Notes: generated by a model from the letters alone, not told the origin. 64,000 nucleotides of DNA from Verrucomicrobia bacterium UBA6982 (GCA_002448475.1 DJYI01000100.1:5154-69153); one strand, 5' to 3'; shown: positions 1 to 61,573, numbered from the stretch's first letter. Program-made: numbers and translations.

Positions 1-14
1 GTTGGTTCAAGACG

Positions 15-1349
15 GTGGAGGCAGGGGCCAATGTGGAGTCTGACAAGATACTCTCAATCCTTGCGGAACGGATGCAAGACGAAGAATCACTTTGGCATGT
101 GGCTGTTGAGAGCAAGGTTGCAACCCTGTCCTCAAAAACCATGTGCATGGGACGGATTACAGACCCTGTCCGCCTTGTGTCGGCGGCATCCGATCCTGAT
201 TGTCCGCGCGATGTGCGCGAGGCCGCCATCAAACGATTGGAAGATTCTGACGACATTCGAAAGGTGTTCCTGTCAAGCCCCGACAAAATCGGGAGGATGA
301 TTTCGTTCCGCCGTCTTGACGCAAACGACATCAAGTCCCCGGAGATCCGGGATCTCATTGTTCCCCTGTTTGTTTCTCTGGGCGAAAACGGCGAAGAACT
401 GGACTGTTCTGCGAAAATTCTCCAGTGGCTCGACCCGGAGTCCAACGTGGACAGTTGGGATGTTCAGATGAAGATTGCGCGAACGCTTGCCTCGTCCGAC
501 ACGCCGGAAAACCGCAGGGCCGCAAGAAGTCTTCTTGTTGATCCGAACTCAATCGAGAATCTCGCCGTTGAACTCCTGGGGCACAACAGTTCTCTTGCAC
601 TTTGGGCAGTTGATCTGATAATCGGAGACGCCGATCTGGTCAAGATTGTTGATCGCGCGCGGGACCGCGATGTGAAATGCGCGGCGGTTTCACGAATCGC
701 GGACGAAACCGAGCTGTCGCACATAGCCCAAAGCGCTGGCTACAATTCATACGCAAGAGCCGTCGCGGCTTCCAGGTTGGGAATAAACCGCGCTGTGCTT
801 CTTGAACGGCTCGCCAGAGGCAAGGATCCCGTCGTCGCCGCTGGCGCGATGTCCGCCCTGCGTCGTGTTAACCCGACAATCGCCAGCGCGATTGATAAAG
901 ACAGAATGACGTCAGAGGCCGTTGAGCGTGAAAAGCGCAAGAGATATCTTGCCGAACGTGAAAGACGTGACCGGGCGGAAGCCGAAACAGAACGTCTCAA
1001 CGACAGAAACAGGCTGAAACTCGAACTTGCCCCGGAGTTTGCCAACATTGACGTTCAGGAGCGCATCAGAAATTGCCGCGCATGGGCAAACCTCGAAAAG
1101 AACGGAATCTCCGTGACAAGGCGCAAAGTGTCGTTCGCCGGACGTGTCACACTCGTGGAAACGCACTGGTTTTCAAGCGATGAACTCGGCATTTCAGTCG
1201 ACGTGTCCGGCGACGCATTTTCCGTCACCGCCCGCATCTGGACGCTTGAAAACGTGAAAGTCGGCGACCGCGTTCGGATCGAAGGCGAGTTCGCCGAAGG
1301 CAATGAAACTTCTGTCACCCTAAAAAATGCGGAATTCTTCCGCTTGTAA
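15..1349 (+). CDS. hypothetical protein with HEAT/PBS-lyase-like helical repeats, a charged coiled-coil stretch and a beta-rich (OB-like) C-terminal domain; possibly 5'-truncated by the window edge
   Basis: 444-aa ORF. Helical repeat-like segments recur (DVREAAIKRLEDSDD, DVKCAAVSRIADETE, DPVVAAGAMSALRR). An E/R-rich stretch (EREKRKRYLAERERRDRAEAETERL) is followed by VSFAGRVTLVE...VGDRVRIEGEF. The frame stays open upstream to nt 3. Confidence 0.6.
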   Translation: MEAGANVESDKILSILAERMQDEESLWHVAVESKVATLSSKTMCMGRITDPVRLVSAASDPDCPRDVREAAIKRLEDSDDIRKVFLSSPDKIGRMISFRRLDANDIKSPEIRDLIVPLFVSLGENGEELDCSAKILQWLDPESNVDSWDVQMKIARTLASSDTPENRRAARSLLVDPNSIENLAVELLGHNSSLALWAVDLIIGDADLVKIVDRARDRDVKCAAVSRIADETELSHIAQSAGYNSYARAVAASRLGINRAVLLERLARGKDPVVAAGAMSALRRVNPTIASAIDKDRMTSEAVEREKRKRYLAERERRDRAEAETERLNDRNRLKLELAPEFANIDVQERIRNCRAWANLEKNGISVTRRKVSFAGRVTLVETHWFSSDELGISVDVSGDAFSVTARIWTLENVKVGDRVRIEGEFAEGNETSVTLKNAEFFRL

Positions 1350-1368
1350 AAGAAAAAAATTAAAACAA

Positions 1369-1929
1369 ATGAGAAAAATCACATTGCATTCGGCTGATTT
1401 TGCTGGAATGAATTTTGAAGAGGTTGAAGCTTGCATTGCAGGCATGCTTCGCCACTATTCGCCAGAGGGGCGGTGGAAGGCTGTTGAACAGATCAGGAAA
1501 GAGGCAGAGCTGCTGCTAGACCAGGAAGCAGCCTCCGCGATTCTGCTGGCGCTGGTGAAGAGTAAGGACATAACAGGAAGCGAAGCAGTAGAGATATGTA
1601 CAGCCATTTCAAAGGAGGGGGGACCTGTTTCTGAAGCCGCTGCGGCTCTAAGAGACGAGGTTGCCTCCTCGTACCATTTAAGCGCTACAATCATTGCAGG
1701 GGTCTCATTTGGCCTGTCGCTCTGTCTATCCTTTTTTGCATTCCGTAGCGATGTCAGTTCAAGATTTGTTTTCTGGTCTTTTGTGTGTTCGCTGTTCGCT
1801 TTTTTCTCAGCGTTCGGGAATTATAGGCTCGCCAATAACAAGTTCGACAAGGTGACACTATTTTTTGCAATCGCCAGTTTCCCCCTGATGGGTATTGGTC
1901 TTCTTGTTGTTCTGTTTTCACGCTTGTAG
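1369..1929 (+). CDS. hypothetical small membrane protein (soluble helical N-terminus, about 3 C-terminal TM helices)
   Basis: ATG at 1369, 20 nt after the upstream stop and preceded by an A-rich stretch; the longer ORF from 1327 overlaps the upstream gene. Hydrophobic segments: IIAGVSFGLSLCLSFFAF, FVFWSFVCSLFAFFSAF, LFFAIASFPLMGIGLLVVLF. Confidence 0.55.
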   Translation: MRKITLHSADFAGMNFEEVEACIAGMLRHYSPEGRWKAVEQIRKEAELLLDQEAASAILLALVKSKDITGSEAVEICTAISKEGGPVSEAAAALRDEVASSYHLSATIIAGVSFGLSLCLSFFAFRSDVSSRFVFWSFVCSLFAFFSAFGNYRLANNKFDKVTLFFAIASFPLMGIGLLVVLFSRL

Positions 1930-1931
1930 GT

Positions 1932-4265
1932 GTGAAGAAATTCTTCGACAGATACCTGTTTTCCAAAACTGGCATGCAGCTAATCATGTCGGTTTTGACG
2001 GTCCTGCTGTTTTCCGCCGTCGCGTCTCTTTGCCGGAGCCGTACTGGCGGAGGCGGGTTCGAGGGTTCGTTTCAGTTTTTCGGCTGGGGGCTTCGGCAGG
2101 TGTCATCCCCGATGGGCGCCGTGGGAACTCTTGAAACCCTCGATGCCATATCAAATCCCGAAGCAAAGTATGCGACACTGGTTGTCGCAATTTGCTGCTG
2201 GATCGTCAGCATCGCAGTTTTCAGTTTCATCACGGGATCTATCGTTAACTGGTTCCGTAACAGGAGCCAGCTGATTGAGGCGGGGAAAGTCCGCTACCGC
2301 TTCCGAAACCATGGCATCATCATCGGCTGGGATTTCCAGGGCGTCGCGACCGTGCTTGCGATGCTCGACCGTTGGAATCTCCGCGAAGTCGTCGTTCTGT
2401 CCAGACTCCTAGCCGCGAATATTCGCGCGGAGTTGGAATCGGAGATCGACGCGAAGACGATGCGCCGAGTGTTTGTCTGCAACGGAGCGGCGGACATGCC
2501 GGACGAATTGGCCTCCCTCCGGCCGGAGAGGGCTCGGGCAATTGTCATTTTGGGCGATGATGATGCGCCGGATCACGATGTCAGGAATCTCCGTCTAGGC
2601 ACAGAATTTAGGCGGACAATCCAAAGGGCCTTTAGGAAGCATCCTCGGAAGTCAGGTTCGCCCCCGATTCGCCTTTTTGTGTCCGTTTCGGATTCCAATT
2701 CTCTTTCGCTAGCCCAATTCTATCCATCCGAAGCGTTGAAAGTGGAAGACGGCATTGAAATGCACGTCGTTAATTTCTGCCAGGCCGTCGTTCGAGATCT
2801 CTTCTCATCGTTTTCCCAGTTCATCGAATGGAACACGGGACGTAAAAAAGGCGTGTACGAAACGCCGTACATGCCACTTGCCTTCAAGCGTGGTGCAGAG
2901 GCCAACGGCGTACACCTAGTCATTTCAGGCATTGGGGACATGGCCAAGGCGCTCGTCCTGGAATTGGTGCCGCTTTTGGGAGGAAATCGCGGCAACGGGC
3001 GCATCACCCTGTTTTCGGACAATGCGTCCGATCTGGGACGTTTCTCCGCATCCCGTCCTTTTGACCGCCTTATCGGAGTGTCGGTCGAGTTTTGCGCAAT
3101 GGCCATTGACTCTCCACAGGGCGTCTCGCGGTTGTCTGAGATCGTTCGCGACGAGTCGTCAAGCGTGACGATTTGTCTGACGGGTGCCAGCCCGGATGGG
3201 ACCTGGTCGACGGCTGTCAGGTTGCTGCCGGTTCTTCGGTTTGAGAACGTCCGGGTCCTCGTCGAACGGAGGACTCCTGCAACGCGGGTGAACAAAATGG
3301 CTCCGCTGGATATGATGGGGTTAAGGAACGTCCACTTCTTCGGTTTCACGGACTGGTTCTTCGCATCGTTCGCAGACCGTCTTGCCTTGGTTAACAAACT
3401 CCTGCCGGAGACGTCGAAATACACGAGCGACCGGTTCTTCGACGAATCGTTTACCGATGGGCTACTGGAAAACCTTTACGCTAACGGGTTTCGGTTTGAA
3501 TACAATCCAAAACGAGTCCGCAAGCCGGTCGCGGAGCTTTCAGATGCCGAGAGCGAGGCCTTGTCCCGATTTGAACACCTCCGGATTTCCAATTGCCGGA
3601 TCCTTCGTGGCGTTGAACCGGGAGATCTGGACGACCCGGTATTCAAGACCTCCACATCCCTTGTTTCATGGGAACACCTGCCTAAAAACGCGCGCGACGG
3701 ATATCTCAGGCGCATCCGGTCTGGACTCGCCGCGCTTGCCGATCTTTACAACTCCGACGATTGCGAATTTCCGTATGTCGTGGAACGAGACGTGTTCAGA
3801 CGCGTCGTGGGCGTCCTACCGGATGAGAACGCATCGGAAACCCTGTCCGAGCGAAGCGCCATCTGGAAGACAATCGTGAAAGTCAGAAAATCGTCAAAGT
3901 GGCGGCAGCCGGACGGGAAGGAAAAGAGCGAGGCGTCTTTTGCCGTAACGCTCGTTCCGGGACCGGGGGTGTCGCGACAGTTGTATCGCCTTTCCTTCCA
4001 GCGGCGCTTTCCGATGATACTAGTTCTTCCGTCTGCGCGGGACGAGTTTCTGGCGCGTTTTCCGGAAGGACCCTCCCGCAACGACATGGCGCGCTGGATT
4101 CGGAATGCAAGCCGTATCGTCATTTTGCCCGACAATTCCGAAAAACAAATCGAATCGACGATTCGTTCGCTGTCGACGGATTTGCTCGTCCGGTCCGCCG
4201 ATGGATGGCGCATCGACACAAACGCCACATCCGAATCAATTGACAGGCAATCTAACAAATCTTGA
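1932..4265 (+). CDS. 2-TM channel-like membrane protein with two RCK/TrkA-N-like (CASTOR/POLLUX-like) Rossmann domains, a RyR-like segment and an unassigned beta/alpha C-terminal domain
   Basis: 777-aa ORF with a GTG start 2 nt after the upstream stop. Two hydrophobic helices (MQLIMSVLTVLLFSAVASL; LVVAICCWIVSIAVFSFITGSIV) flank a Gly-rich loop. HGIIIGWDFQG...AIVILGDDD resembles the ILGWSDK-type RCK start. A second Rossmann-like segment is VHLVISGIGDMAKALVLELV. GFRFEY...LVSWEHLPKNARDGYLRRI resembles bacterial RyR domains. The tail alternates short strands (VVGVLPDE, FAVTLVPGPG, MILVLPSARDE, RIVILPDN). Confidence 0.6.
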   Translation: MKKFFDRYLFSKTGMQLIMSVLTVLLFSAVASLCRSRTGGGGFEGSFQFFGWGLRQVSSPMGAVGTLETLDAISNPEAKYATLVVAICCWIVSIAVFSFITGSIVNWFRNRSQLIEAGKVRYRFRNHGIIIGWDFQGVATVLAMLDRWNLREVVVLSRLLAANIRAELESEIDAKTMRRVFVCNGAADMPDELASLRPERARAIVILGDDDAPDHDVRNLRLGTEFRRTIQRAFRKHPRKSGSPPIRLFVSVSDSNSLSLAQFYPSEALKVEDGIEMHVVNFCQAVVRDLFSSFSQFIEWNTGRKKGVYETPYMPLAFKRGAEANGVHLVISGIGDMAKALVLELVPLLGGNRGNGRITLFSDNASDLGRFSASRPFDRLIGVSVEFCAMAIDSPQGVSRLSEIVRDESSSVTICLTGASPDGTWSTAVRLLPVLRFENVRVLVERRTPATRVNKMAPLDMMGLRNVHFFGFTDWFFASFADRLALVNKLLPETSKYTSDRFFDESFTDGLLENLYANGFRFEYNPKRVRKPVAELSDAESEALSRFEHLRISNCRILRGVEPGDLDDPVFKTSTSLVSWEHLPKNARDGYLRRIRSGLAALADLYNSDDCEFPYVVERDVFRRVVGVLPDENASETLSERSAIWKTIVKVRKSSKWRQPDGKEKSEASFAVTLVPGPGVSRQLYRLSFQRRFPMILVLPSARDEFLARFPEGPSRNDMARWIRNASRIVILPDNSEKQIESTIRSLSTDLLVRSADGWRIDTNATSESIDRQSNKS

Positions 4266-4344
4266 CTCATTTTAAATCCCTGACGATTACACAACTCCCC
4301 TATCTCAAGCTTTCACTCACCAACACACCAAAAACGAAAGATCC

Positions 4345-5520
4345 ATGATGAAAAAGGAACACAACGGCACATCAGACAAAAAGGCGGAGAAAGAAAACAA
4401 GGCGAAATCCCGCAAGAAGAACATGGCCAAATACGAGTCCTACAAACTTGCGTTCGGGCAAATAAAGAACGCAATTGCGAAGGGGTTCCACATCGAGGCA
4501 ATCGCATTGGAGGAAAGCATCATTTCCGATCGACTTCAGTCAGCGGCCGAGGGGATGGGAATTGTGCTGAAATCAACGCGAAATGGAAGATCTGCTGACT
4601 TTTCCGAACTGGCGAAACTGCCTAGCAAAGAACCCGGATTTCAGTCGCTTTGCGATTTGTTTGCCGAGCGGAGTTTGACAACGGCCGCATTGGTGGAGTG
4701 GGGGCTCTCGAGGAATGATTTCATTCACAATGTCGCCCATGGGGCGCCCGGAGGAAAACCGGCGATTCCGGCATGCGAGTTTTCGTCAGTCGGAAAGGCG
4801 ATTGCGATAAATGGCCTCAAACTCGCAAGGACAGTGTGCGACTGGTCAAAGTCCTGCCAGTCGGATCGGCGAAAAGTTGAAGAATCGCGAAAATGTCGTT
4901 TTCGACTGTTTGTGACTGCGTCTCGCGCTGTGGACATCGCCCATTGCGACTACAGTTGTGACTTCGACGATCCGGGCCATCGCGCAAAATGGAGCCCGAG
5001 CGAACTGGTTTCGGAATTTGGAGGAGTTTACGATTCCCATGGAATAGCCATACCGCTGAATGGAAGTTTGCTTCATGTTGAGGCGGGTGACTGCGAAGAA
5101 AAGGAAATCCGGCTGGATGATTCAGAAATCGGGATCGCGTTCATCGAGTCCCGCATTCCTGAAAAGAACAAAGACCCAGTTATGTACGCTCGAGCTACTT
5201 GGGATGATCAAGAATGGCAAATGTCTGAACTGCCTGATTCAACACTGGACATCAACGGGCGATTCGACATTCACAGAATGTCCATTGGAATCAGGCTGGT
5301 TCCGGATATGAAAGGCGGTGTCGAAAAGCTCGTCTCTCACATCCTTTACGCAGGGCGCGTAATACATGCACCATACGTGCAAACAATAGGACGCGGGGCG
5401 AAGTCCAAATTCTGGACGCTTCAGAATGGCAAATGGAAGAAAATGTCAACTTCGCTCTTGAAGATGAAGATCCGGGAGAATGTCGACAAATTTGAGGCCG
5501 CGTCATTTTTCGGAAAATAG
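4345..5520 (+). CDS. hypothetical protein with an N-terminal HEPN-like domain (RNDFIH = Rx4H motif) and an unassigned C-terminal domain of about 210 aa
   Basis: 391-aa ORF with a Lys-rich N-terminus. Helical segment YKLAFGQIKNAIAKGFHIEAIALEESIISDRLQS is followed by LVEWGLSRNDFIHNVAHG, which matches the R-N-x3-H HEPN signature. I recognise nothing in the C-terminal half. Confidence 0.5.
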   Translation: MMKKEHNGTSDKKAEKENKAKSRKKNMAKYESYKLAFGQIKNAIAKGFHIEAIALEESIISDRLQSAAEGMGIVLKSTRNGRSADFSELAKLPSKEPGFQSLCDLFAERSLTTAALVEWGLSRNDFIHNVAHGAPGGKPAIPACEFSSVGKAIAINGLKLARTVCDWSKSCQSDRRKVEESRKCRFRLFVTASRAVDIAHCDYSCDFDDPGHRAKWSPSELVSEFGGVYDSHGIAIPLNGSLLHVEAGDCEEKEIRLDDSEIGIAFIESRIPEKNKDPVMYARATWDDQEWQMSELPDSTLDINGRFDIHRMSIGIRLVPDMKGGVEKLVSHILYAGRVIHAPYVQTIGRGAKSKFWTLQNGKWKKMSTSLLKMKIRENVDKFEAASFFGK

Positions 5521-5586
5521 CAGTAAATGTATTGATGAGGAAAGGAAATGCGATGATGGAAATGGCTCTATTCGTTCCGGGACGCG

Positions 5587-6114
5587 TCACAGGCCCACGC
5601 CGAGGACGCCGCCTATCTCGCAAAGGCGAAGAAGGACGGAACCTACGACCACGCGGCCTACCGCGAGGCCAGCGCGTCGTTCGGGACAATCGTGCTGGAG
5701 TGCGATCTGGATCTGGAGCCGGCGGTCGTCTACAAGATGTACGAGGATCGGTGGCAGATCGAAATCGTCATGCGGCACTACAAGTCCGCGTGCCGGTTCG
5801 ACGAAACGCGGGTCCACAGCGACTACTCCGTGATCGGAAGCGAGTTCTGCGACTTTCTGGCGACCGTGCTGACGTTTCGCCTGATTAGGGAGTTCGACAA
5901 GGCGCGGCTGCTGGAGAAGAGGACGTATTCGCGGACCATGTCCCTGCTGCGCCGCGCCAAGAAAATCCGCATCGGCGAACATGGGGAATGGCTGCCCGTT
6001 CGGATGAATCCGTCAACGGGGAAAATGTTCGCGGCGCTCGGTCTGGACATCGCGGCGTCCGCGACACCCAAACGCAGACCGGGCCGACCGCCAAAAATCG
6101 GAACGCCAGCTTGA
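5587..6114 (+). pseudogene. remnant of an IS4-superfamily (IS1634-like) DDE transposase; only the C-terminal third is present
   Basis: Translation FGTIVLECDLDLEPAVVYKMYEDRWQIEIVMRHYK carries the Y-x2-R-x3-E-x6-K (YREK) signature of IS4-family transposases. No DDE N-terminal part lies upstream; the frame is closed by TGA at 5554-5556. Base composition jumps to high GC at about 5575. Confidence 0.75.
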
Positions 6115-6197
6115 AACCCACCATCGCGCATGGTATTCTTCACGCCAACGCCTCGCCTGTTGACGGGGTATCACCCCAGCCAATTGGGAAAGTTCTA

Positions 6198-6407
6198 ATG
6201 AACACAATGAAAAGAAATCCGAACCGAAAACGACGAATACGAAGAAACCGGCAAAGGCTTCTTTCAGTTCGTCCAGAATTGACTGAATCTTTTGACTGGG
6301 CGCGTCTTTCCGGCGGACAATGGAAGGAGATTCTTGTCCATGCACCACATCTTTCCGGCAAATGCGACTGGGATACATATGACGGCTGTGACTGGTCCGA
6401 CATTTGA
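6198..6407 (+). CDS. small basic protein ending in two copies of the Trp/Cys repeat (paralogue of 7404-9151)
   Basis: 69 aa from ATG 6198. C-terminus FDWARLSGGQWKEILVHAPHLSGKCDWDTYDGCDW matches the repeat consensus of the large downstream protein. Confidence 0.45.
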   Translation: MNTMKRNPNRKRRIRRNRQRLLSVRPELTESFDWARLSGGQWKEILVHAPHLSGKCDWDTYDGCDWSDI

Positions 6408-7315
6408 CGAGCATCCAGATATGGCAAAACACTTGGCCCATCCATAATCGAATCAATGAAATGACAACCATGACGCTTACAGATCGAATTCATCAAGATT
6501 TGGCAGAGCTTTTTGAAAATCGCGAAGTTTCTGCGGCCAAATCACTTCGCGAATTGATTGATGTTTCGACAAGAGGATTGCCACAACATTTTGTCGGTGA
6601 TCAGGAATCGAAAACAATTCTCGTCATGCTCAACCCCGGACAAGACGAAAAGGAAGCGGATCGGTGTTTCCGATGTGTGACAGAGGACTACGATCATTCG
6701 TCCGTTCAAAAGTTCATCAATCGCTACATCAAGGAGAAAACAGATTTCGGGGAAATCCACAAAGACGAGGAAGACCACTTTGACATCAAACAGGCGGCGT
6801 TTCTCAAGGTGTGGAAGGGAAGCGGTATCAACCTGCCCGTCGGGTTTCCAAATGACAAAAAGACATTTCTTGCAGCGAAGAGAAATGTCCTTATGCAGAA
6901 ACTCCAGTTGGAATTGATTCCGTATTGTTCCCGCGACTTCAAGTTCAAGAAACGGGATTTGACGGCGCTTATTCCTTTCATCGAAACGATATTGGAGGAA
7001 ATCTTCAAGAAAAAGCGGAACATCGTGGTTTTTTGCGCGGGGCTTTTTGAGCGTGTGTTCAAAGCATACAACAAGCACGTTGGCGCAAATGTCTTCTCTA
7101 TTGGCGATGCCGCGAAAAGCAAACCGCTCAAGGACGGTGGAAAACTCCGTGGAAGATGCGCGCCGGTCGAAATTTGCTTTCGTGGAAAGAAGCAACAGGC
7201 GCTTATCGCCTACACGTTTGCGTCCCAGGCGTTGTCCCGCGCTTACCGGCTAATGGAAAGATATGGTGAATTCTGCTTCTCAAACTACGGCATCGCACCT
7301 CCAAAAAACACTTGA
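6404..7315 (+). CDS. hypothetical protein in the lowest-GC part of the window
   Basis: 303-aa ORF. TTG at 6404 overlaps the upstream stop; ATG at 6461 is the more conservative start. It contains KTILVMLNPGQDE and LIPYCSRDF. No family is assigned with confidence. Confidence 0.6.
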   Translation: MTSIQIWQNTWPIHNRINEMTTMTLTDRIHQDLAELFENREVSAAKSLRELIDVSTRGLPQHFVGDQESKTILVMLNPGQDEKEADRCFRCVTEDYDHSSVQKFINRYIKEKTDFGEIHKDEEDHFDIKQAAFLKVWKGSGINLPVGFPNDKKTFLAAKRNVLMQKLQLELIPYCSRDFKFKKRDLTALIPFIETILEEIFKKKRNIVVFCAGLFERVFKAYNKHVGANVFSIGDAAKSKPLKDGGKLRGRCAPVEICFRGKKQQALIAYTFASQALSRAYRLMERYGEFCFSNYGIAPPKNT

Positions 7316-7403
7316 CTGAACATGCTGTGGTCAGGTACCGCAACATGTGAGCGCTTCACGCCCGTTCATCCGTTAGGTTCCATTCGCAAACCACTCCACT
7401 CCC

Positions 7404-7862
7404 ATGAAACAGACCAAGACCAAGACCAATCATCCAACAGTCGGAACGACCGGCCGCAAGTCGAAGAAAACCACATGGTCCGACCTCGTCAGGTTGTACT
7501 CGGAGTATGCCGAAAAATCAGATTGGGACGATCTGGATACGGACGACTGGATTCGGATCCTTCGAGGGCATCCCGAGTTCGTCTGTCGGCTATCCAATGC
7601 CCATCCCGGCAGCTGGGCGCGGTCAAAGCTGCTTCAGGTTCTTCCGAGATATTTCAAGGAGACCGAACCCTGGGGGGAGATGGACGGGGAGGATTGGTGC
7701 AATCTGCTGGAACTCCAGCCCCAGCTTTCGCCAATGTGCGACAAGTGGGAAGATATGGAAGGGGAACAGTGGTTCAATCTTCTAGAGAAGTACCCCTATT
7801 TGTCCGCCTTTTTTCCAAATGGTGCGATTTTGGAAAGTTGGACAGGACGGACTGGCGAATGA
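7404..7862 (+). CDS. Trp/Cys 24-25-aa repeat protein, N-terminal segment (upstream part of a frameshifted gene)
   Basis: 152-aa ORF. Repeats include DWDDLDTDDWIRILRGHPEF, WGEMDGEDWCNLLELQPQLSPMCDKW and EDMEGEQWFNLLEKYPYLSAFF. The repeat pattern stops at the T6 run (7809-7814) and resumes in the -1 frame. Confidence 0.7.
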   Translation: MKQTKTKTNHPTVGTTGRKSKKTTWSDLVRLYSEYAEKSDWDDLDTDDWIRILRGHPEFVCRLSNAHPGSWARSKLLQVLPRYFKETEPWGEMDGEDWCNLLELQPQLSPMCDKWEDMEGEQWFNLLEKYPYLSAFFPNGAILESWTGRTGE

Positions 7863-8989
7863 TTCTTGGCGTTCTGCCCCAGTTCGCCGACAAATGCGAC
7901 AAGTGGGATGAAATGTCTTCAGGAAACTGGGCCTATCTTCTTACCGAGCAGCCGCAGTTTGCCGACAAATGCGACAAGTGGAGCGGGATGACCGTTGATC
8001 ATTGGTTGAATTTGTTGAAGAAACAGCCCCAATTTGCGGGCAAATGTGATAAATGGAAAGAATTTGACGGTTACAAGTGGCTGCGTCTTTTGGAAGAACA
8101 ACCGCAATTGGCCGACAAATGCGATTGGAAAAAGTTTGATGACGATGCTTTGACAAGCCTTATACGTGAACAACCTGGACTAGTCGGCAAATGCGATTTG
8201 AAGAAGTTGAATGGGAACAATTGGCGGGTTCTTCTTGAAAAACACCCTCAGTTCGCTGACAAATGCGACTGGGAAAAACTGGATGGAGAAGATTGGTCGA
8301 CACTCTTGCGGACTCAACCACAGTTTTCCGATCGATGCAATTGGATCAAGATGTCCAGCGACGACTGGGCGGAACTTCTGAAATACCAACCGCAGTTTGC
8401 CGACAAATGCGACAAGTGGGGAAAAGTGTCTGCACATGGTTGGGCAGAACTTCTTTGCGAACAACCGCAATTCGCCGAGCGATGCAAGAAATGGAAACCC
8501 ATTGACGAAGACGATTGGCTCTGGGTTCTTTGTTACCAGCCGCAGTTTGCTGACAAGTGCGACAAGTGGAGCAATTTCTCGCCCAACACGTGGTGCAATC
8601 TATTGGGGGATCAACCCCAGTTTTCGGATCGTTGTACAGCTTGGAAGGGGATGACGGCTAGCGAATGGGCCCATCTTCTTGCCAAGCAACCGCAGTTTGC
8701 CGACAAGTGCGGTGTATGGGAACAGTTTTCCGGCAGCGAATGGTCTGATCTATTGCAAAGTCAGCCTCAGCTCGCCGATCAATGTGACTGGTCGAAACTG
8801 GAAGGATGGGATTGGGCTACGCTCTTGAGCAAACAGCCCAAGTTCGCGAATGGGTGTGATTTCGATTGGCTCAACGGAGAATGCTGGGCCTGGATCCTGC
8901 AATTTCAGCCTCAGTTCGCCGATCGATGCGAGTGGCTGAAACTGACCACGAAAGACTGGAAGTCTCTGCTCGAGGAGCGCCCCGAAATG
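7521..8989 (+). repeat. coding tandem repeat, period about 72-75 bp, about 19 units
   Basis: Read from the translated repeats spanning both frames of the 7404-9151 gene. Confidence 0.8.
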
Positions 8990-9151
8990 GAGAAATATCG
9001 GTCGCGCCTGCAAACGGCCATCCAGGAGTTGGATCGTCAGCAACGGACAAAAGGACAAACCGTTTCCAACAAGAAGCCCCCCAAAAAGAAGAGGTCTGCG
9101 CCAGCGAAGAAGTCCGCAGATTCCGAAGAGGAAGACTTCTTCTTTTCATAG
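7859..9151 (+). CDS. Trp/Cys 24-25-aa repeat protein, C-terminal segment (about 15 repeats plus a Lys-rich and acidic tail)
   Basis: Same frame as ORF 7322-9151. About 15 consecutive units fit consensus DKCDKW-x5-6-W-x2-LL-x2-QPQFA. The tail is KKPPKKKRSAPAKKSADSEEEDFFFS. ATG 7859 overlaps the TGA of the upstream segment (ATGA). Repeat homology in this frame already starts at about 7811 (SKWCDFGKLDRTDWR). Confidence 0.75.
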   Translation: MILGVLPQFADKCDKWDEMSSGNWAYLLTEQPQFADKCDKWSGMTVDHWLNLLKKQPQFAGKCDKWKEFDGYKWLRLLEEQPQLADKCDWKKFDDDALTSLIREQPGLVGKCDLKKLNGNNWRVLLEKHPQFADKCDWEKLDGEDWSTLLRTQPQFSDRCNWIKMSSDDWAELLKYQPQFADKCDKWGKVSAHGWAELLCEQPQFAERCKKWKPIDEDDWLWVLCYQPQFADKCDKWSNFSPNTWCNLLGDQPQFSDRCTAWKGMTASEWAHLLAKQPQFADKCGVWEQFSGSEWSDLLQSQPQLADQCDWSKLEGWDWATLLSKQPKFANGCDFDWLNGECWAWILQFQPQFADRCEWLKLTTKDWKSLLEERPEMEKYRSRLQTAIQELDRQQRTKGQTVSNKKPPKKKRSAPAKKSADSEEEDFFFS

Positions 9152-9313
9152 CTCACAAAGAGCAAGGGGTGCATACGCCAAAGCCCAAGAAGCCGAGGTT
9201 CACGCCAGCAACGTTCGCCATCGGTGTCGAGATTGTCGTTGTGTTCGTTCCCATACACGCGTCAATCCGATTGTTCCCGTTCGAAGGTTCACCAAGTCCT
9301 TTTGGAAAACGAC

Positions 9314-9589
9314 ATGAAAGCCGACAACACCGCAATCCCGCCCGAAGTCCGCGAAAAGTTGAAGCAGTCCTTCATTCGAAGCGGGCCGAGCGGCGTGGCG
9401 GAACTGGAAGAGTTCAAGACCCTGGCCGAACTACCCGGCTGGGGCTGGAGCAAGTTGCTCCGCAGTTGGGATGACCTCCCGCTTGGGGCCTACGCGAGCG
9501 TCTGCGATTGGTCCAAGCTTGATGACGACGATTGGGAGCTGCTCCTCGCCTTCTATCACCATTTCGTAAACAAATGCCCGACTTCGTGA
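9314..9589 (+). CDS. small protein with two to three Trp/Cys repeat units (third paralogue)
   Basis: 91 aa from ATG 9314. It contains WGWSKLLRSWDDLPLGAYASVCDWSKLDDDDWELLLAFYHHFVNKCP. Confidence 0.5.
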   Translation: MKADNTAIPPEVREKLKQSFIRSGPSGVAELEEFKTLAELPGWGWSKLLRSWDDLPLGAYASVCDWSKLDDDDWELLLAFYHHFVNKCPTS

Positions 9590-9598
9590 ACTTTTTTC

Positions 9599-9627
9599 TT
9601 GCATTTTTTGCAGAGTTTTGTTATAAT
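9599..9627 (+). promoter_or_regulatory. sigma70-type promoter candidate (TTGCAT - 17 nt - TATAAT)
   Basis: The -35 TTGCAT lies at 9599-9604, followed by a 17-nt T-rich spacer and a perfect -10 TATAAT at 9622-9627. It sits 29 nt upstream of ATG 9656 in an AT-rich gap. Confidence 0.5.
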
Positions 9628-9655
9628 CTCGTCATCGTCGCAACAGCGGCGATCA

Positions 9656-9910
9656 ATGACAAAACCAAGGGAAAACAACACCATGATGGTCGTAAGCCGA
9701 GAATTGTATGAATGGTTGAATCACCCCGAACAAAAGCCACGATGCAAACTGAAGTCGAAGGACATGGTCGCCCGGGACACGTTTGCCCGGGAAAGGATCA
9801 AACTCGTCTCCGCCGCCGAGTTCTTCGGGGAAAAGCCGAAAAGGAAACCCGCAGGCAAGCCGCGCAAATCGTCTCCTTCGGGACGCTGTCAGAGGTGCGC
9901 CGCCACATAG
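9656..9910 (+). CDS. small basic hypothetical protein
   Basis: 84 aa from ATG 9656 downstream of the promoter candidate. Lys/Arg-rich C-terminus ending GRCQRCAAT. No recognised family. Confidence 0.35.
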   Translation: MTKPRENNTMMVVSRELYEWLNHPEQKPRCKLKSKDMVARDTFARERIKLVSAAEFFGEKPKRKPAGKPRKSSPSGRCQRCAAT

Positions 9911-9942
9911 CGGCACGCCCTTGGAGGCGCAGCGTCTCGTAG

Positions 9943-10264
9943 CGCCACTTTTCAACCTTTCAACTTTTCAACCTTTCAACCGCCTGCGGAGGCAGGGCGC
10001 ATGGCGCGGCCGGAGGCCGCAACCCCAGCGTCGCGGGCTGGAGGCCCGCGCTCCCAGGCATGGCGCGGCCGGAGCCCCCCCAGCGCCGCGCCACTTTTCA
10101 ACCTTTCAACTTTTCAACCTTTCAACCGCCTGCGGAGGCAGGGCGCATGGCGCGGCCGGAGGCCGCAACCCCAGCGTCGCGGGCTGGAGGCCCGCGCTCT
10201 CAGGCATGGCGCGGCCGGAGCCCCCCCAGCGCCGCGCCACTTTTCAACCTTTCAACTTTTCAAC
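9943..10264. repeat. tandem composite repeat, about 147-bp unit x 2.2 (four YTTTCAAC octamers plus a GC-rich hairpin block)
   Basis: The unit GCCACTTTTCAACCTTTCAACTTTTCAACCTTTCAACCGCCTGCGGAGGCAGGGCGCATGGCGCGGCCGGAGGCCGC...CGCGGGCTGGAGGCCCGCGCTCCCAGG... starts again at 10090 and 10236 with one or two differences. Confidence 0.9.
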
Positions 10265-10343
10265 TGTCTGCAAATCGACAATTGGCACAATGTTCACAAA
10301 TTCGCATTCGCCGCACTCGTGCCTATTCGTGGAACGGGCTTGC

Positions 10344-11666
10344 CTACATGTCCTCAAGAGAGAGTCCCTTGAACGAAGTGCGGTAGTCCGTCCATTCCGG
10401 AACGGACGCGAGAAACGCCTTTGCCTTTGAGCGGAGGGTCGCCAGAGAGATGCGCGAAGCATCGCGCTTGACTTCGCAGAAGGTCGCTTGACGGTCGATC
10501 TCGTTCGCGGCAATGAGGTCGATTTCGTTTTCACCTTTGCGGTCCCACCACGCTCCGAGGCGGGTCAGGCCGCCGCTTTCGAGGAAACGCTCCCTGAACC
10601 AGCGCTCGAGTGCGAAGCCGCTGAATATCTCGTAGTCGCGTTCCACGAGACGGCGAAGCTCGTCGAACGCCCGCATTTCGATTAGGTGTCCGTAGCGTTC
10701 GACGAACCGGAACCAGAAGAGAAAGAATTCGTCCGCGATGGCGTAGCGCAGGTTCTTGGCGGCCGGTTTGGAAAGAAGGGGCTGTCGGCGCACGATCACG
10801 CCGTAGTCCTCCTCCAGCCGCGTGAGGTAGCCGCCGATCTTTGTGCCGAGCGACTGCTCCAGTTCGTTTCTTGCCGTGCGCCCGCGCGCGATGCCTGAAA
10901 GAATGGAAAAGTAGGTTCCGTAGTCCTTGCCGAACTCGTCCACGAGGACGGCACGGCCTTCGTCGAGGAAGAACGAACTTTCTCGGACGATCTCCCGGAT
11001 CATCCGCCCTCGGTCGGTCGCGTGCGCGTCCATCAGCAGCGAAACGTATTTGGCGACGCCGCCGGTAAAGGCCCAGAGCGCGAGTAGGTCCTCGTTCGTG
11101 GCGGCGGGGGCGTGGTCGCGCAGGATCGTGCGCAGGACGTCCGTCCGGAACGGACGGACGGTCATCATCGCCGTTTGGCGTCCGTAGAGCGGTTCCTTGT
11201 AGTCACGGAATATCCGGGAAAGAAGCGTACTCACGCTGCCGCAGACGACGAGGTTGATCTGTGCAGTCCGCTCGTGGCGCCCCCAGGCGTCCTGCATTTC
11301 GCTGAACACGGCGGGATTCACGCGGCGAAAGTCCTGGAATTCGTCGATGAAGAGCGTGATCGGCCGCGTCTCCGCTGCCTTGAGGATGGTTTCGAAGATT
11401 GGAGCGAAGTGCAGGACGCCGCCCGCGCCGACGGGGATGCCGAGCTTGGTTTCGACCTCTGCGGCGAACGTCTCGCACAGGTCGGCCTCGGCCTTGCGCG
11501 CGACGTAGAAATAGAGGTAGGGCTCGTCGCCGAGCGCCGTTTGGACGAGGGCGGTCTTGCCTACTCGCCGCCGGCCCGTGACGACCGTCCACTGCGCAGT
11601 CTCGCGCGACCGTTCGCGGATGTCCCGCAATTCCCTGATTTCATTCTCCCTGTCGTAGAATTTCAT
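10344..11666 (-). CDS. AAA+ ATPase of the archaeal-ATPase/DUF234 type
   Basis: 440 aa. The N-terminus FYDRENEIRELRD...VVTGRRRVGKTAL carries a Walker A motif and LFIDEFQ is the Walker B motif. The C-terminal part resembles DUF234. Confidence 0.8.
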   Translation of the reverse strand: MKFYDRENEIRELRDIRERSRETAQWTVVTGRRRVGKTALVQTALGDEPYLYFYVARKAEADLCETFAAEVETKLGIPVGAGGVLHFAPIFETILKAAETRPITLFIDEFQDFRRVNPAVFSEMQDAWGRHERTAQINLVVCGSVSTLLSRIFRDYKEPLYGRQTAMMTVRPFRTDVLRTILRDHAPAATNEDLLALWAFTGGVAKYVSLLMDAHATDRGRMIREIVRESSFFLDEGRAVLVDEFGKDYGTYFSILSGIARGRTARNELEQSLGTKIGGYLTRLEEDYGVIVRRQPLLSKPAAKNLRYAIADEFFLFWFRFVERYGHLIEMRAFDELRRLVERDYEIFSGFALERWFRERFLESGGLTRLGAWWDRKGENEIDLIAANEIDRQATFCEVKRDASRISLATLRSKAKAFLASVPEWTDYRTSFKGLSLEDM

Positions 11667-11882
11667 TGCTTTTCTCCCTGAAAGAAAACAGCCGTTGCCG
11701 CAACCGCTGTTTTCTTTCGAGGAGCCTAGCCTTTTCCGAGACTAAAAGCAAGCACTACTTTCAAACAGGCAGGGCCGCGAATAAAAAAACGCGCCCGCCA
11801 TGATGGCGGGGCGCGATTTTATGCGTCTGCCCTGACATCCGGCAGAGATCCCAAATCGTGCGGTCACTATGCTGGCGACCGC

Positions 11883-12318
11883 CGCGGGCAGGATGCCCGC
11901 GCTCCCAGGACGGGCCGCCCGGAGGTCGGCCCCTACCATGTTGCTTTGCCGCGGGCTGGAAGCCCGCGCTCCCAGGCATGGCGCGGCCGGAGGCCGCACC
12001 CATGTTCGCGGGCAGGATGCCCGCGCTCCCAGGGCGGGCCGCCCGGAGGTCGGCCTCTACCATTGTGCTTGTCGCGGGCTGGAAGCCCGCGCTCCCAGGG
12101 GCGACGCAGCGTCGCGGGCAGGATGCCCGCGCTCCCAGGGTGGGACGCGCGGAGGTCGGCCCCTACCATTGTGCTTGCCGCGGGCTGGAAGCCCGCGCTC
12201 CCAGGGCGGGCCAGCGTCGCGGGCTGGAAGCCCGCGCTCCCAGGGGGGAGGCCGCTCCCACCATGTTCGCGGGCAGGATGCCCGCGCTCCCAGGAAGCTT
12301 TCTGCCCGCGCTCACAGG
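11883..12318. repeat. array of about 9 copies of a 27-bp hairpin repeat CGCGGGC(A/T)GGA(T/A)GCCCGCGCTCCCAGG with short, partly repeated linkers (REP/BIME-like)
   Basis: Copies start at 11883, 11950, 12008, 12073, 12113, 12179, 12217 and 12268, with a degenerate copy ending at 12318. Each has a 7-bp stem (CGCGGGC/GCCCGCG). Linker GGAGGTCGGCCCCTACCAT(G/T)T(T/G)GCTT recurs three times. Confidence 0.9.
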
Positions 12319-12517
12319 ACGAACGGCGTGCTCGGAGAGCATGCCCTACTAAAACGGCTCGCCGGGACGGCTCGCCCCTCCCGTATGTGGCAACGACGCA
12401 CACTTTGCGAGCTGTTCTGGCTTTGCGCGATAATGCACGCTTTTTTTTCTTGCCTTTTGCGCGCGTTCATTCTACAGTTGGGGCTGTCACCCGCCATGTT
12501 TCCTTTCTGAAAAAGCC

Positions 12518-13558
12518 ATGCCAGACAATTCAGACGTCCCGGTTTCCGAAAGCAAATTCTCAAAGTTCCCGTTCCGCTTCGTCGGATTGATCCTGATTGC
12601 CGCCGCCGTGCTGCTGCATGTGCGGCAGTCGTCAGAGCAGCGCAACAGGGAACTTGGCGCCGCCAAGGTGCGTCAGAGCGCCGCCGCCGGCGTTTTGGGG
12701 CTTGGCCTGCGCGCCGTCCCGGACGGAGCCTCCCACGAACCGATCTTCGAGCCGTGCTCGCGCGAAGTGGCGTCGAACATTCTGGCGTGTCTTTCCGCGG
12801 CTGCTCCAACTCGCGACGCTCCGCCGGACGGAGCCAAAACATACGATCTGTTCCTCCTGCTTCCAGACAGGGCGCGGGCGTTTTTGCGCGCGCAGCGCGC
12901 TCCGGGCGACGACTCCGCGTTCGTGGCGCTTCGCTCCGTCCAGCGCTCCGGCGCTTCGCCGGTCGAGCTCGACTGCGTTCCGGCCGTTGTCGAGGGGCTT
13001 GGCGCGATTTTCGACGAACTCGACACCGGCGAGGGCGGAGCGCTTCGAAAAACGGTCGAGCTTCCCAATTTAGAGCATTGGAAGTCGGTTTCGCGCGACG
13101 CGCCCGAGTTCTCGCTGTCGCCGGAGGAGCGCTCCTCGACTGCTTCTTCGCTTCGGGCGGTCATAGCTAAGGGCGTGGCGGCGATCGGGGTCTCCTCCGG
13201 ACGCTCGACCCCGGATTCCCCGGTGGCGATGTCCCTGCTGGTCGGGCAGGCGCTCTCCGACGCGCTTGCGACATTCGCGAATGCCGAAGACGTCGATAAT
13301 CCGTCGCCCACAATCGATGGGCGCGGCTGCTCGGCGGCGATTTTCGCGACCGACAAGGTCCGTCTTGCGCTCATGGTTGCAATCCCGGACGAGTCTCCCA
13401 ATGACGCTCTTGTCGGATTTATCGAAACGACCGACAATGGTGGTCCAGACGGGCGCCCGTCCGCGACCGTTTCGCCGCCAGCGCGCGTTCCCGGCCTCGG
13501 CGCGGTGATCGCCCCGGCTCTTGACGCCGCCGGGAAGGTCGCCGGAGCGGCCGAATAA
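12518..13558 (+). CDS. hypothetical membrane-anchored protein
   Basis: 346 aa with a single N-terminal hydrophobic helix (FRFVGLILIAAAVLLHV). The rest is Ala/Ser/Pro-rich. No family recognised. Confidence 0.5.
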   Translation: MPDNSDVPVSESKFSKFPFRFVGLILIAAAVLLHVRQSSEQRNRELGAAKVRQSAAAGVLGLGLRAVPDGASHEPIFEPCSREVASNILACLSAAAPTRDAPPDGAKTYDLFLLLPDRARAFLRAQRAPGDDSAFVALRSVQRSGASPVELDCVPAVVEGLGAIFDELDTGEGGALRKTVELPNLEHWKSVSRDAPEFSLSPEERSSTASSLRAVIAKGVAAIGVSSGRSTPDSPVAMSLLVGQALSDALATFANAEDVDNPSPTIDGRGCSAAIFATDKVRLALMVAIPDESPNDALVGFIETTDNGGPDGRPSATVSPPARVPGLGAVIAPALDAAGKVAGAAE

Positions 13559-14607
13559 TGCGGATTTTACTCGCGCCGCTGCGCGGCGTGACCCTTGCCC
13601 CGTTCCGTCGGACGCTTTCTTTGCGTTTCGGCGGACTGGACGGCGCTCTCGCCCCTTTCGCGGCGCTTGGCGGGCCGGGAAGAGTTCCGGCTAAGATTTT
13701 CGCCGATGTCGCGGCCGACGCGCGCGGCGAGTTCCCGGTCGAACCCCAGGTCATCGGGCGAGACCCGGATTCGCTTCGCGAGGCCGGGCGCATACTGCGC
13801 GACATGGGGTTTTCCCGCATGAATCTCAATTGCGGATGCCCGTGGAAATTCGTCGCGCGGAAGGGGCGCGGCAGCGGTCTGCCGGAAGATCCAGTAGCGT
13901 TCGAGCGAATGCTAGAGGCAGGGTGCGAGGCCATGCCGGGGGGATTTTCTGTCAAGATCCGACTCGGACGGCATTCGCCACGGACGCTCGAAGAAAGGGC
14001 GGAAATGCTAAACCGCCATCCGCTTCGGTGCATCGTGGTGCATCCGCGCACTGCGGATCAGATGTATGGCGGACGCGTGGATCTTGACGCCTTCGGGCGC
14101 GTTTTGCCGATGCTGCGAGCGCCAGTCATCTACAATGGAGACATTTTTTCGGCGGACGACGCGGTTGCCATCGCGGCGCGTTTTCCATCTATTTCCGGCA
14201 TCATGATCGGACGTGGCCTTTGCATGCGTCCATGGCTTGCGGAGGAAATCGCCACACGTCTTTCGGGAAAGTCGCTTTTGCCGTCTCCGGAGCGTGAAGC
14301 TGAAAACCGCGCCCGGGCGTTCCATTTCGCCGAGGCTCTCGCGGAGCAATACTCCAGCCAGCTTTTCGGCCCGGCACCGCTGCTTGGGCGGCTCAAGGAA
14401 CTCTGGAGCTATCTCCACGCCGCCTTTGAGGGCGGCGACGAAGGTTTGCGCCGCATCTTGCGCTCAACCACGCCAGAGGCGCTTCTTGCGGCCGTGCGCT
14501 TCCTTGCCGCTGGCGCCGGAGTTGACGTCACGCAGCCGCGCTTTGCGCGCGGCGGCGAGTTGCGCGATTGTTCGTCAGACCGAATCGACGGGGCGCAGCA
14601 GCGCTAA
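13558..14607 (+). CDS. tRNA-dihydrouridine synthase family protein
   Basis: 349 aa. NLNCGCP motif plus the TIM-barrel Dus pattern (LLAPLRGVT..., VHPRT). The ATG overlaps the upstream TAA. Confidence 0.8.
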   Translation: MRILLAPLRGVTLAPFRRTLSLRFGGLDGALAPFAALGGPGRVPAKIFADVAADARGEFPVEPQVIGRDPDSLREAGRILRDMGFSRMNLNCGCPWKFVARKGRGSGLPEDPVAFERMLEAGCEAMPGGFSVKIRLGRHSPRTLEERAEMLNRHPLRCIVVHPRTADQMYGGRVDLDAFGRVLPMLRAPVIYNGDIFSADDAVAIAARFPSISGIMIGRGLCMRPWLAEEIATRLSGKSLLPSPEREAENRARAFHFAEALAEQYSSQLFGPAPLLGRLKELWSYLHAAFEGGDEGLRRILRSTTPEALLAAVRFLAAGAGVDVTQPRFARGGELRDCSSDRIDGAQQR

Positions 14608-61488: not shown

Positions 61489-61573
61489 GTTGAAAAGTTG
61501 AAAAGTTGAAAAGTTGAAAGGTTGAAAAGTTGAAAGGATGGGGGTGGGGTGGGGGTGGTGTGGGGGCGGAGGG
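61489..61573. repeat. six tandem GTTGAAAR octamers followed by a G-run tract with G-quadruplex potential
   Basis: Octamers at 61489-61536. GGGGGTGGGGTGGGGGTGGTGTGGGGGCGGAGGG at 61540-61573. Together they fill almost the whole lpxI-to-small-gene spacer. Confidence 0.85.

Follow-up and report, generated by a model that had tools for sequence, protein, structure and literature searches.

Candidate mosaic of two gene units, one with a chimeric RCK-channel-like protein and one with a HEPN-type protein, in a low-GC island of Verrucomicrobia bacterium UBA6982

Do four tightly packed genes at the edge of a stretch of low guanine-plus-cytosine (GC) content form one undescribed defence system, or do they belong to units with separate histories? 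This question is raised by positions 1-5520 of a 64,000-nucleotide (nt) stretch of Verrucomicrobia bacterium UBA6982 (GCA_002448475.1, DJYI01000100.1:5154-69153), the whole of which is called the window here. The original prediction, made from the DNA sequence alone, had placed there a four-gene conflict or defence cassette encoding a HEAT/OB-like protein (A), a small protein with three transmembrane (TM) segments (B), a two-TM channel-like RCK/RyR protein (C) and a protein with a HEPN-type motif (D), next to the remnant of an insertion sequence (IS). The answer we favour, without holding it firmly, is that this region occupies the right-hand side of a variable, low-GC island, in the genome of a rumen bacterium that is uncultured and otherwise high in GC, and is a mosaic of two units, A...D and B-C, not one four-gene system. 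The genes, and the parts of C and D on which the argument turns, are as follows (aa, amino acids):

1..1349, plus strand: gene A as far as it lies in the window, the C-terminal 449 codons of a 786-aa gene (L001 4174-6534)
1369..1929, plus strand: gene B, 186 aa, its stop 2 nt ahead of the start of C
1932..4265, plus strand: gene C, 777 aa, with TM1-pore-TM2, tandem RCK domains, an RyR(R12)-like domain and an extra alpha/beta C-terminal domain
1974..2279, plus strand: membrane/pore module of C, with the pore motif GWGLRQVSSPMGAVGTLETLD at 2082-2144 and without TVGYG
2307..3383, plus strand: tandem RCK domains of C, with the invariant HG[IV][IV]IGWDFQG at 2310-2342
3531..3773, plus strand: degenerate RyR(R12)-like domain of C, with RFEHLRISNCRIL at 3567-3605
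3771..4223, plus strand: extra C-terminal alpha/beta domain of the long forms of C, residues ~600-750, predicted local distance difference test (pLDDT) ~90 in AlphaFold2 (AF2)
4345..5520, plus strand: gene D, 391 aa, with an N-terminal HEPN-type domain (~4417-4875) and a beta-rich C-terminal domain (~4900-5517)
4510-4536 and 4711-4728: motifs EESIISDRL and RNDFIH (residues 123-128) of D

The arrangement itself was reproduced by calling open reading frames (ORFs), which returned four genes on the plus strand at 15..1349, 1369..1929, 1932..4265 and 4345..5520, with gaps of 19 nt (A/B), 2 nt (B/C) and 79 nt (C/D), and the predicted step in GC was likewise seen (0.49-0.57 within positions 1-5000 vs 0.62-0.72 past 10 kb). 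Ahead of its first start codon, ORF A stays open all the way to the window edge, and the full gene begins 1,011 nt left of the window. On L001, an 80.9-kb metagenome scaffold that contains the same sequence (window position equals L001 position minus 5185), two further genes lie left of A on the same strand, U0 (270 aa) and then U2 (245 aa), the latter overlapping A by 11 nt, and the spacing from U0 to D is -11 to 79 nt with all genes co-directional. Because A is open at the left edge and two co-directional genes stand upstream of it, the four-gene appearance is an artefact of the window boundary, and the locus carries a caution: tight spacing at the edge suggested a four-gene system, and comparative context does not bear it out. 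The low-GC block was also said to end at the IS remnant (~5.5 kb); it spans L001 ~2,000-15,000 instead, ~13-15 kb, and reaches window position ~9,900. Its horizontally acquired look held up, given the low GC, the IS debris and a toxin-antitoxin (TA) pair, RelB/YafQ, which lies farther left on L001 on the strand opposite to A. Upstream of RelB/YafQ, non-coding DNA at L001 235-1033 consists of a 263-nt unit in three tandem copies (97-100% identity).

Comparison of loci then separated the four genes. We obtained 26 homologues of C from a collection of 5.8 billion proteins and examined ~28 distinct C loci besides the window's own. A and B stand beside C solely in identical copies of the window contig (L001, L002, L031) and never in the ~28 others, and a relative of D accompanies C in one locus (L016), where it lies 4 kb off, is 225 aa long and lacks the HEPN domain. 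The expected conservation of A-B-C-D as neighbours was therefore not seen, and from these neighbourhoods the C family reads as moving between islands independently of A, B and D. Homologues of D, in turn, occur mostly without C (L009-15, L017, L047).

A different partnership was found for A and D. A D-type HEPN gene, a U2-like gene and an A-like gene, with or without a U0-like gene, recur together in four diverged contexts, in these gene orders:

Window contig: U0-U2-A-(B-C)-D
L013: U2-A-49-U0-225-59-D
L017: A-57-U0-234-FtsK-103-533-D
L047: HEPN-U2like-Alike, with gaps of 27-49 nt

P0034, the stand-alone HEPN protein closest to D (52% identity to the N-terminal domain of D), is followed by a U2-like gene (gap 49 nt) and an A-like gene (27 nt). 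Full-length homology joins A with L013_714, L017_863 and L047_688 (E 1.6e-18 to 1e-113), and the lipobox of A, ..SGC/VS, is kept in four homologues, with signals ending ..GC[VA]S. Weak relatives of A were found by tblastn/blastp against the fetched loci; with full-length A, a word-index homologue search returned A itself only and a PDB sequence search nothing, and an IMG/VR scan gave no relative. At full length A is a lipoprotein made up of HEAT-like repeats, a charged stretch of coiled coil and a C-terminal domain rich in beta structure. For the predicted label 'HEAT/OB-like' there were sub-threshold HEAT_2 matches only (E 0.006-0.019). A sensor or scaffold had been proposed as the role of A, and an exported lipoprotein with a lipobox is no obvious cytoplasmic one. 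U0 has a lipoprotein-type signal sequence ending ..VAGC/S, and in the U2-like proteins a TM segment at the N-terminus is combined with a charged coiled coil. Co-occurrence in four diverged contexts supports a link between A and D at the level of gene neighbourhoods, and B-C would then be an insertion into the A...D unit.

Several points weigh against this division. A and D are directly adjacent in no locus examined, so the insertion of B-C is something we infer. All the related loci stem from a few uncultured rumen lineages, and a single mobile element inherited from a common ancestor, rather than a joint function, may account for the neighbours they share; five D contexts make a small sample. 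From U0 to D the genes are packed tightly (overlaps to 79 nt), as in a single operon, which makes functional coupling in the window's genome possible. Window D itself has no HEPN match in Pfam, PADLOC or NCBIfam, and its AF2 model, built on a six-sequence alignment, has pLDDT 42 and is helical at residues 9-175 with low confidence.

Searches for known families and signals gave little for the genes themselves. No match above threshold to A-D was found in Pfam, PADLOC, NCBIfam or PHROGs. In PADLOC-DB v2, 0 families were hit at E up to 1 by A-D, the transposase fragment and the downstream genes E and F, and full-length A likewise had no match, so that the predicted defence module has no counterpart among the PADLOC models. 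Scans of the window for tRNA genes and Rfam families gave no match, and those for promoters and terminators no signal above shuffles.

The most informative protein of the locus is C. GTG 1932 is its true start, since it restores the N-terminus MKKF[FL]DRYLFSR with which all C homologues begin. An AF2 model built on the family alignment reached pLDDT 82 and a predicted template modelling score of 0.79, and the best Foldseek matches of this model in the PDB were all tandem-RCK channels (E 1.8e-9 to 1e-6). The LjCASTOR gating ring came first (E 1.8e-9), with Slo1, the TrkA ring and MthK among the others, and GsuK was matched over the whole chain, ~600 columns including the membrane part (E 2e-8). 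The tandem Rossmann-type domains of the cytosolic part match the CASTOR, GsuK, Slo1 and TrkA rings (E 1.8e-9 to 2e-6), and the membrane part has helices at residues 2-25, 32-44/46-56 and 62-102, as in a two-TM pore module. Together with an RyR profile match considered below, these results bear out the description of C as a two-TM channel-like RCK/RyR protein. The K+ selectivity filter T[VI]GYG is lacking in C, which has GWGLRQVSSPMGAVG there instead; after the pore helix most family members have ..FWGFRQITDGGS.. (ITDGGS), and the window copy has ..GWGLRQVSSPMG.. (VSSPMG, without the Asp). Because the filter is lacking, C is filed as RCK-channel-like and not as a K+ channel, and the assignment as a canonical K+ channel was rejected. 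We are confident, on the strength of the model, in a two-TM tandem-RCK channel-like protein, which would be expected to conduct ions and to be gated by a cytosolic ligand. The extra C-terminal domain has no PDB-sequence or Pfam relative.

B, which ends 2 nt before C, combines a soluble N-terminal half with three hydrophobic segments towards the C-terminus (residues 104-126, 133-151 and 161-186, by hydropathy), in line with the predicted small three-TM protein. It has no family match in the four databases named above and no homologue in any other locus examined. B is probably co-translated with C, and may be an accessory membrane subunit of it.

The two ends of C have different relatives. Residues 1-100 are 64% identical to the short-form clade P0015-21 vs 33% to P0002, the closest relative of window C, and residues 101-750 are 82-86% identical to P0002 vs 25-33% to the short forms. 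By these identities window C is a chimera, with a pore module from another clade. Tandem arrays of two to three C paralogues with differing membrane modules were also found (L044 9530-17410, L040 1-4292 and L041). In one paralogue (L044:9530-11926) the membrane module fused to the RCK-RCK-RyR module is of Kv type, with six TM segments, an S4-like helix and TLTTVGYGD, and matches KCNQ and Kv1.2 (E 1e-30); this paralogue is the sole member of the C family with a K+ filter. In a further paralogue no more than a short loop separates two TM segments. The Kv-type fusion to the same cytosolic module confirms that the cytosolic part of C is a channel gating module. As judged from sequence comparison, the C family is lineage-specific, its cytosolic gating module recombined with different membrane modules, and it offers a clear natural case of pore-module swapping, in which a single conserved gating module carries pores of Kv type, CASTOR-like pores and others.

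Since the family includes a canonical K+ channel, the idea that C has a physiological role must be taken seriously as a rival, although on the whole an unlikely one. On this account C, perhaps with B, is an ordinary ligand-gated cation channel of ion homeostasis or signalling, D is an incidental neighbour and neither acts in conflict. RCK channels are classic homeostatic channels, and C matches them structurally; the paralogue with the canonical Kv-type TVGYGD has the same cytosolic module; no defence hidden Markov model was matched, and housekeeping genes (glycoside hydrolases, dehydrogenases) occur at some C loci. Such genomes are moreover rich in leucine-rich repeat (LRR), Sel1, Ank and TIR repeat proteins, so that adjacency to them may be chance. 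Distribution and setting speak against it. The family is very patchy, with 6 loci in a pattern scan of 185,579 species genomes; it sits in low-GC islands with TA, IS, GmrSD, DUF4011 helicase-nuclease and TIR genes; it shows the module swapping and tandem paralogy just described; and no K+ transport partner gene was seen at any C locus. The neighbours of C were these, the Pfam census behind them being a lower bound (the ORF caller chose antisense ORFs in high-GC loci):

Adjacent to C, 7 loci: double-AAA ATPase, with generic AAA similarity to IetA/TRIP13 models
Directly upstream of C, 4 loci: BspA-type LRR (LRR_5) protein
Near C, at least 8 loci: 24-aa-repeat proteins as in window gene F
Downstream of C, 4 loci: 328-aa protein
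Near C, 2 loci (L008, L038), beside short forms only: TIR-domain proteins

In the A...D unit, the protein for which an activity can be proposed is D. A word-index search gave five homologues of it, and a profile search of 1.84 billion representatives gave 566 relatives, nearly all stand-alone proteins of 150-175 aa, which align to D residues ~25-185. Over 61 relatives, E57, R63, R123 and H128 (D numbering) are invariant and the N of RNxxxH nearly so; the predicted HEPN-type motif, RNDFIH, is thus present in D in the Rx4-6H form of HEPN domains. Weak matches among the 61 converge on HEPN families: HEPN_RiboL-PSP (8/61, best E 1.2e-4), HEPN_Cthe2314 (3/61) and Csx1/Csm6 HEPN (3/61). In NCBIfam the D family matched no HEPN model and no member reached a curated threshold, and PDB sequence searches with D, the D family and the D C-terminal domain gave no match. 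We accept the N-terminal domain as HEPN-type at the sequence level, representing a new subfamily with a novel fusion, and D is most likely a metal-independent RNase that would act through the R123/H128 dyad. The beta-rich C-terminal domain (~200 aa) was found in 6 proteins only. The idea that D is a C-terminal polymorphic toxin was rejected, as the HEPN domain is N-terminal, and no nucleotidyltransferase family of a HEPN-MNT pair was found in the flanking C, transposase fragment and E. Searches with D by tblastn against plasmids and phages gave no match, and the IMG/VR scan no D relative. Three viral contigs that are almost identical, L050-L052 (IMG/VR), encode a stand-alone D-type HEPN (147 aa, 32% identity) immediately behind an ORF of 442 aa.

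The homologues of D are found in two kinds of context: in one they follow genes for FtsK/SpoIIIE, for a protein of 103 aa and for a coiled-coil protein, joined by E in L009-12, and in the other they follow U2-like, A-like and U0-like genes. The FtsK/SpoIIIE-family ATPases (856-901 aa) lie at L009 4672-7737 and L017 4708-7640, and upstream of D homologues throughout L009-12. The 103-aa protein that follows them has a full-length WXG100 match below threshold (E 0.0086), which recalls a type VII-like or DNA-transfer module. RhuM, DUF4417, PIN and TA genes were also noted near D homologues, and two genes downstream of the one in L013 a 229-aa protein (6976-7665) resembles 23S_rRNA_IVP (four-helix-bundle, Avd-like) with an E of 1.7e-6 that is below the Pfam cut-off. 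To the right of D, the window contains the following:

5692..6114, plus strand: C-terminal fragment of an IS1634-family DDE transposase, 140 aa (NCBIfam E 1.4e-10, positions 363-482/483)
6404..7315, plus strand: gene E, 229 aa as called from 6627 (229-303 aa), no family match
7404..9151, plus strand: gene F, 24-aa repeats (QPQFADKCDKW...), frameshift near 7809-7814
9934..10272, plus strand: right edge of the low-GC island, with (TTTCAACY)n and a GC-rich palindrome inside a 146-nt tandem repeat
10344-11666, minus strand: ATPase_2/DUF234-type ATPase, the first gene past the right edge, at the rise to host-level GC

The transposase remnant had been read as a truncated IS4-type element; the truncation was confirmed, with the last ~120 profile positions present, and the best family is IS1634 (in Pfam, DDE_Tnp_1, E 2e-4). 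In the window this fragment stands between D and E. Homologues of E accompany D elsewhere: in L009-12 (66% identity) E is the gene just upstream of D, and in L016 (97%) it is close to the D fragment. The repeat of F runs through two overlapping frames (ORFs 7404..7862 and 7322..9151) with a switch at a T6 homopolymer (CCTTTTTTCC), which would fit an error in sequencing, a pseudogene or a phase-variable site prone to slippage; F-type repeat proteins are the commonest neighbours of C, and are fused to TIR in L008 and L038. Arrays of TTTCAACY (3-6 copies) occur at 9950-9980, 10096-10126, 10242-10264, 45835-45857 (minus strand), 61489-61535 (minus strand) and L001 1-31, the last at the contig start, 15.1 kb upstream of the right-edge array. 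The first three are contained in the 146-nt tandem repeat. The arrays are intergenic and dispersed, with 0 expected by chance (0 in 100 shuffles). They flank the island on both sides, but since further copies occur at other places in the window, we rejected them as attachment (att) sites.

These surroundings bear on a further account, in which U0-U2-A...D, with the FtsK/SpoIIIE and WXG100-like proteins of related loci, form the backbone of an integrative element or of a secretion or transfer system, D serves in addiction or exclusion and C is a passenger. It is suggested by the FtsK/SpoIIIE gene and the weak WXG100 protein upstream of D homologues in L009-12 and L017, by their RhuM, DUF4417, PIN and TA neighbours, by the low GC and the repeats at both island edges, and by a break of the contig at the IS. 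We regard it as rather improbable all the same: no integrase, relaxase or FtsK gene is among the called and profiled genes of the window's island, the (TTTCAACY)n arrays are dispersed genome-wide and give no specific att site, the WXG100 match is sub-threshold, and neither A, C nor D was matched in the plasmid, phage and IMG/VR collections beyond one marginal NAD-binding hit of C (tblastn, plasmids).

The RyR-like domain of C opens another line of interpretation. A profile of the C family matches PDB chains of RyR domains (6uhi, E 5e-7; 6uag/3nrt, E 0.005-0.009), and the C homologue P0025 has a precomputed PF02026 hit; window C alone gave no Pfam RyR match. The RyR-domain proteins of phages known as RyDEP bind or cleave the Thoeris signals 2'/3' cyclic ADP-ribose (cADPR) with H75, W78, H100 and D117, residues common to animal RyR Repeat12 (2026 preprint, PMC13232231). 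Short-form C paralogues retain AEHNRWW…GW…HWD…DLD, the full ligand-residue set. The clade of the window has FEHLRIS (W to I), GV for GW and S/T for the second His, with the first His alone clearly retained, and so the pocket of His-x-x-Trp, second His and Asp is not found in window C. If the C family is nucleotide-gated through the R12 pocket, the window copy is probably not gated in this way, judging by these residues, and its extra C-terminal domain may have taken over ligand sensing.

Beside two short forms with an intact RyR pocket, large TIR proteins are encoded (L008 13083-21968 and L038 11802-16160), one combining TIR_2 with 24-aa repeats, the other 2xTIR with Sel1; these TIR neighbourhoods also include a fusion of a kinase with an ADP-ribosylglycohydrolase. 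Given the TIR genes adjacent in two loci and the binding of 2'/3'cADPR by RyR domains, one could suppose that the short forms are opened by TIR-made ADP-ribose-type signals. The C family would then be RyR-domain RCK-gated channel effectors of nucleotide immune signalling, a Thoeris-like branch, whose long forms swapped the pocket for a new C-terminal sensor and joined AAA+ ATPase, LRR and repeat partners; separately, the HEPN protein, its U2-like partner and the A-like lipoprotein would make up a new kind of RNase system that senses the envelope. We treat this as speculation with a small chance of being right; no TIR gene, and so no Thoeris-like TIR signal generator, is among the called genes of the window's island. 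Were C to conduct under nucleotide control, an RCK/RyR channel would join the small set of membrane effectors of bacterial conflict, RyR Repeat12, shown to bind cADPR signals in phage, would be tied to a real bacterial channel, and the nucleotide regulation of ryanodine receptors would have a prokaryotic precedent.

Least probable, indeed very doubtful, is a single abortive-infection system made up of A-B-C-D, or of all six genes with U0 at one end and D at the other, in which A/U0/U2 sense infection, B/C depolarises the membrane and the D HEPN RNase stops translation. In its favour, channel-type and HEPN-type effectors are both typical of such systems, the co-directional genes with gaps of -11 to 79 nt look operon-like, TA and IS elements are present in the island, A and D show a conserved link, and contig L016 carries both C and a D-related gene. 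Against it, A and B are missing beside C in the ~28 other loci, B has no homologue, the L016 relative lacks the HEPN domain and lies 4 kb from C, D homologues occur without C and PADLOC has no match.

We therefore return to the mosaic of two units, and lean slightly towards C and D as conflict or mobile-element cargo acting independently. The analysis establishes the layout of the genes, the fold of C and its chimeric build, the conserved HEPN motif of D and the pattern of neighbours, whereas ion conduction, gating by a ligand, RNase activity and any part in growth arrest or defence are proposals. In the A...D unit, the exported lipoprotein A, the lipoprotein U0 and the membrane-anchored coiled-coil protein U2 stand beside a D-type HEPN; the three might form an envelope complex that signals to D, whose beta-rich C-terminal domain could regulate or target the RNase. 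A HEPN protein found together with a coiled-coil membrane protein and a HEAT-like lipoprotein makes a recurring trio not described before, through which the envelope may be coupled to an RNase. In the B-C unit, C would be a tetrameric ligand-gated cation channel, its pore lacking a K+ filter, and the RCK ring with its appended domains would open the pore upon binding of a cytosolic ligand. Either effector could halt growth in the manner of abortive infection. A defence role for the region is a plausible possibility.

An architecture like that of C, an RCK channel with an RyR-like and an extra domain, was not described in the literature searched, and comparison with known systems places its parts. 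C resembles GsuK and MthK in the order of parts along a single chain, TM1-pore-TM2 and then tandem RCK domains; it differs in lacking TVGYG, in its Rossmann motif GWDFQG in place of GxGxxG, in the added RyR-like and C-terminal domains and in lying in a low-GC island and not in a homeostasis context. The HEPN families RiboL-PSP, Cthe_2314 and Csm6/Csx1 share with D a putative all-helical domain of ~150 aa, the invariant R-N-x3-H and an acidic/Arg pair in an early helix, whereas in D this domain is fused to a unique beta-rich one, and none of the canonical partners, MNT and CARF included, is present. The membrane effectors of defence systems, namely Rex (RexB), type II Thoeris TM-Macro, the two-TM effectors of CBASS and Pycsar and HalA of Hailong, are ligand- or signal-controlled channels or pores that halt the infected cell. 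The likeness of C to these is conceptual only, with TIR proteins beside two C paralogues; sequence and profile similarity is absent (PADLOC was negative), and the window's island has no signal-generating enzyme. The RyR Repeat12 proteins (PF02026), compared here through the Bacteroides thetaiotaomicron RyR-domain protein and phage RyDEP, are tied to C by the family-profile match to RyR-domain chains, and the short forms keep the adenine/ADP-ribose-ligand residues of RyDEP and RyR3, whereas RyDEP is a small soluble dimeric glycosidase or sponge outside any channel. The closest structural match to the gating ring of C is found in the plant nuclear Ca2+ channels CASTOR/POLLUX/DMI1, which like C have non-K+ pores. 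They differ from C in having four TM segments and no RyR domain, and share no sequence homology with it outside the fold. In CASTOR the filter is AD265S(A)GNHA with an essential Asp (PMC6697748), and it is this filter that the ITDGGS motif of most C-family members resembles, unlike window C, in which the Asp is absent.

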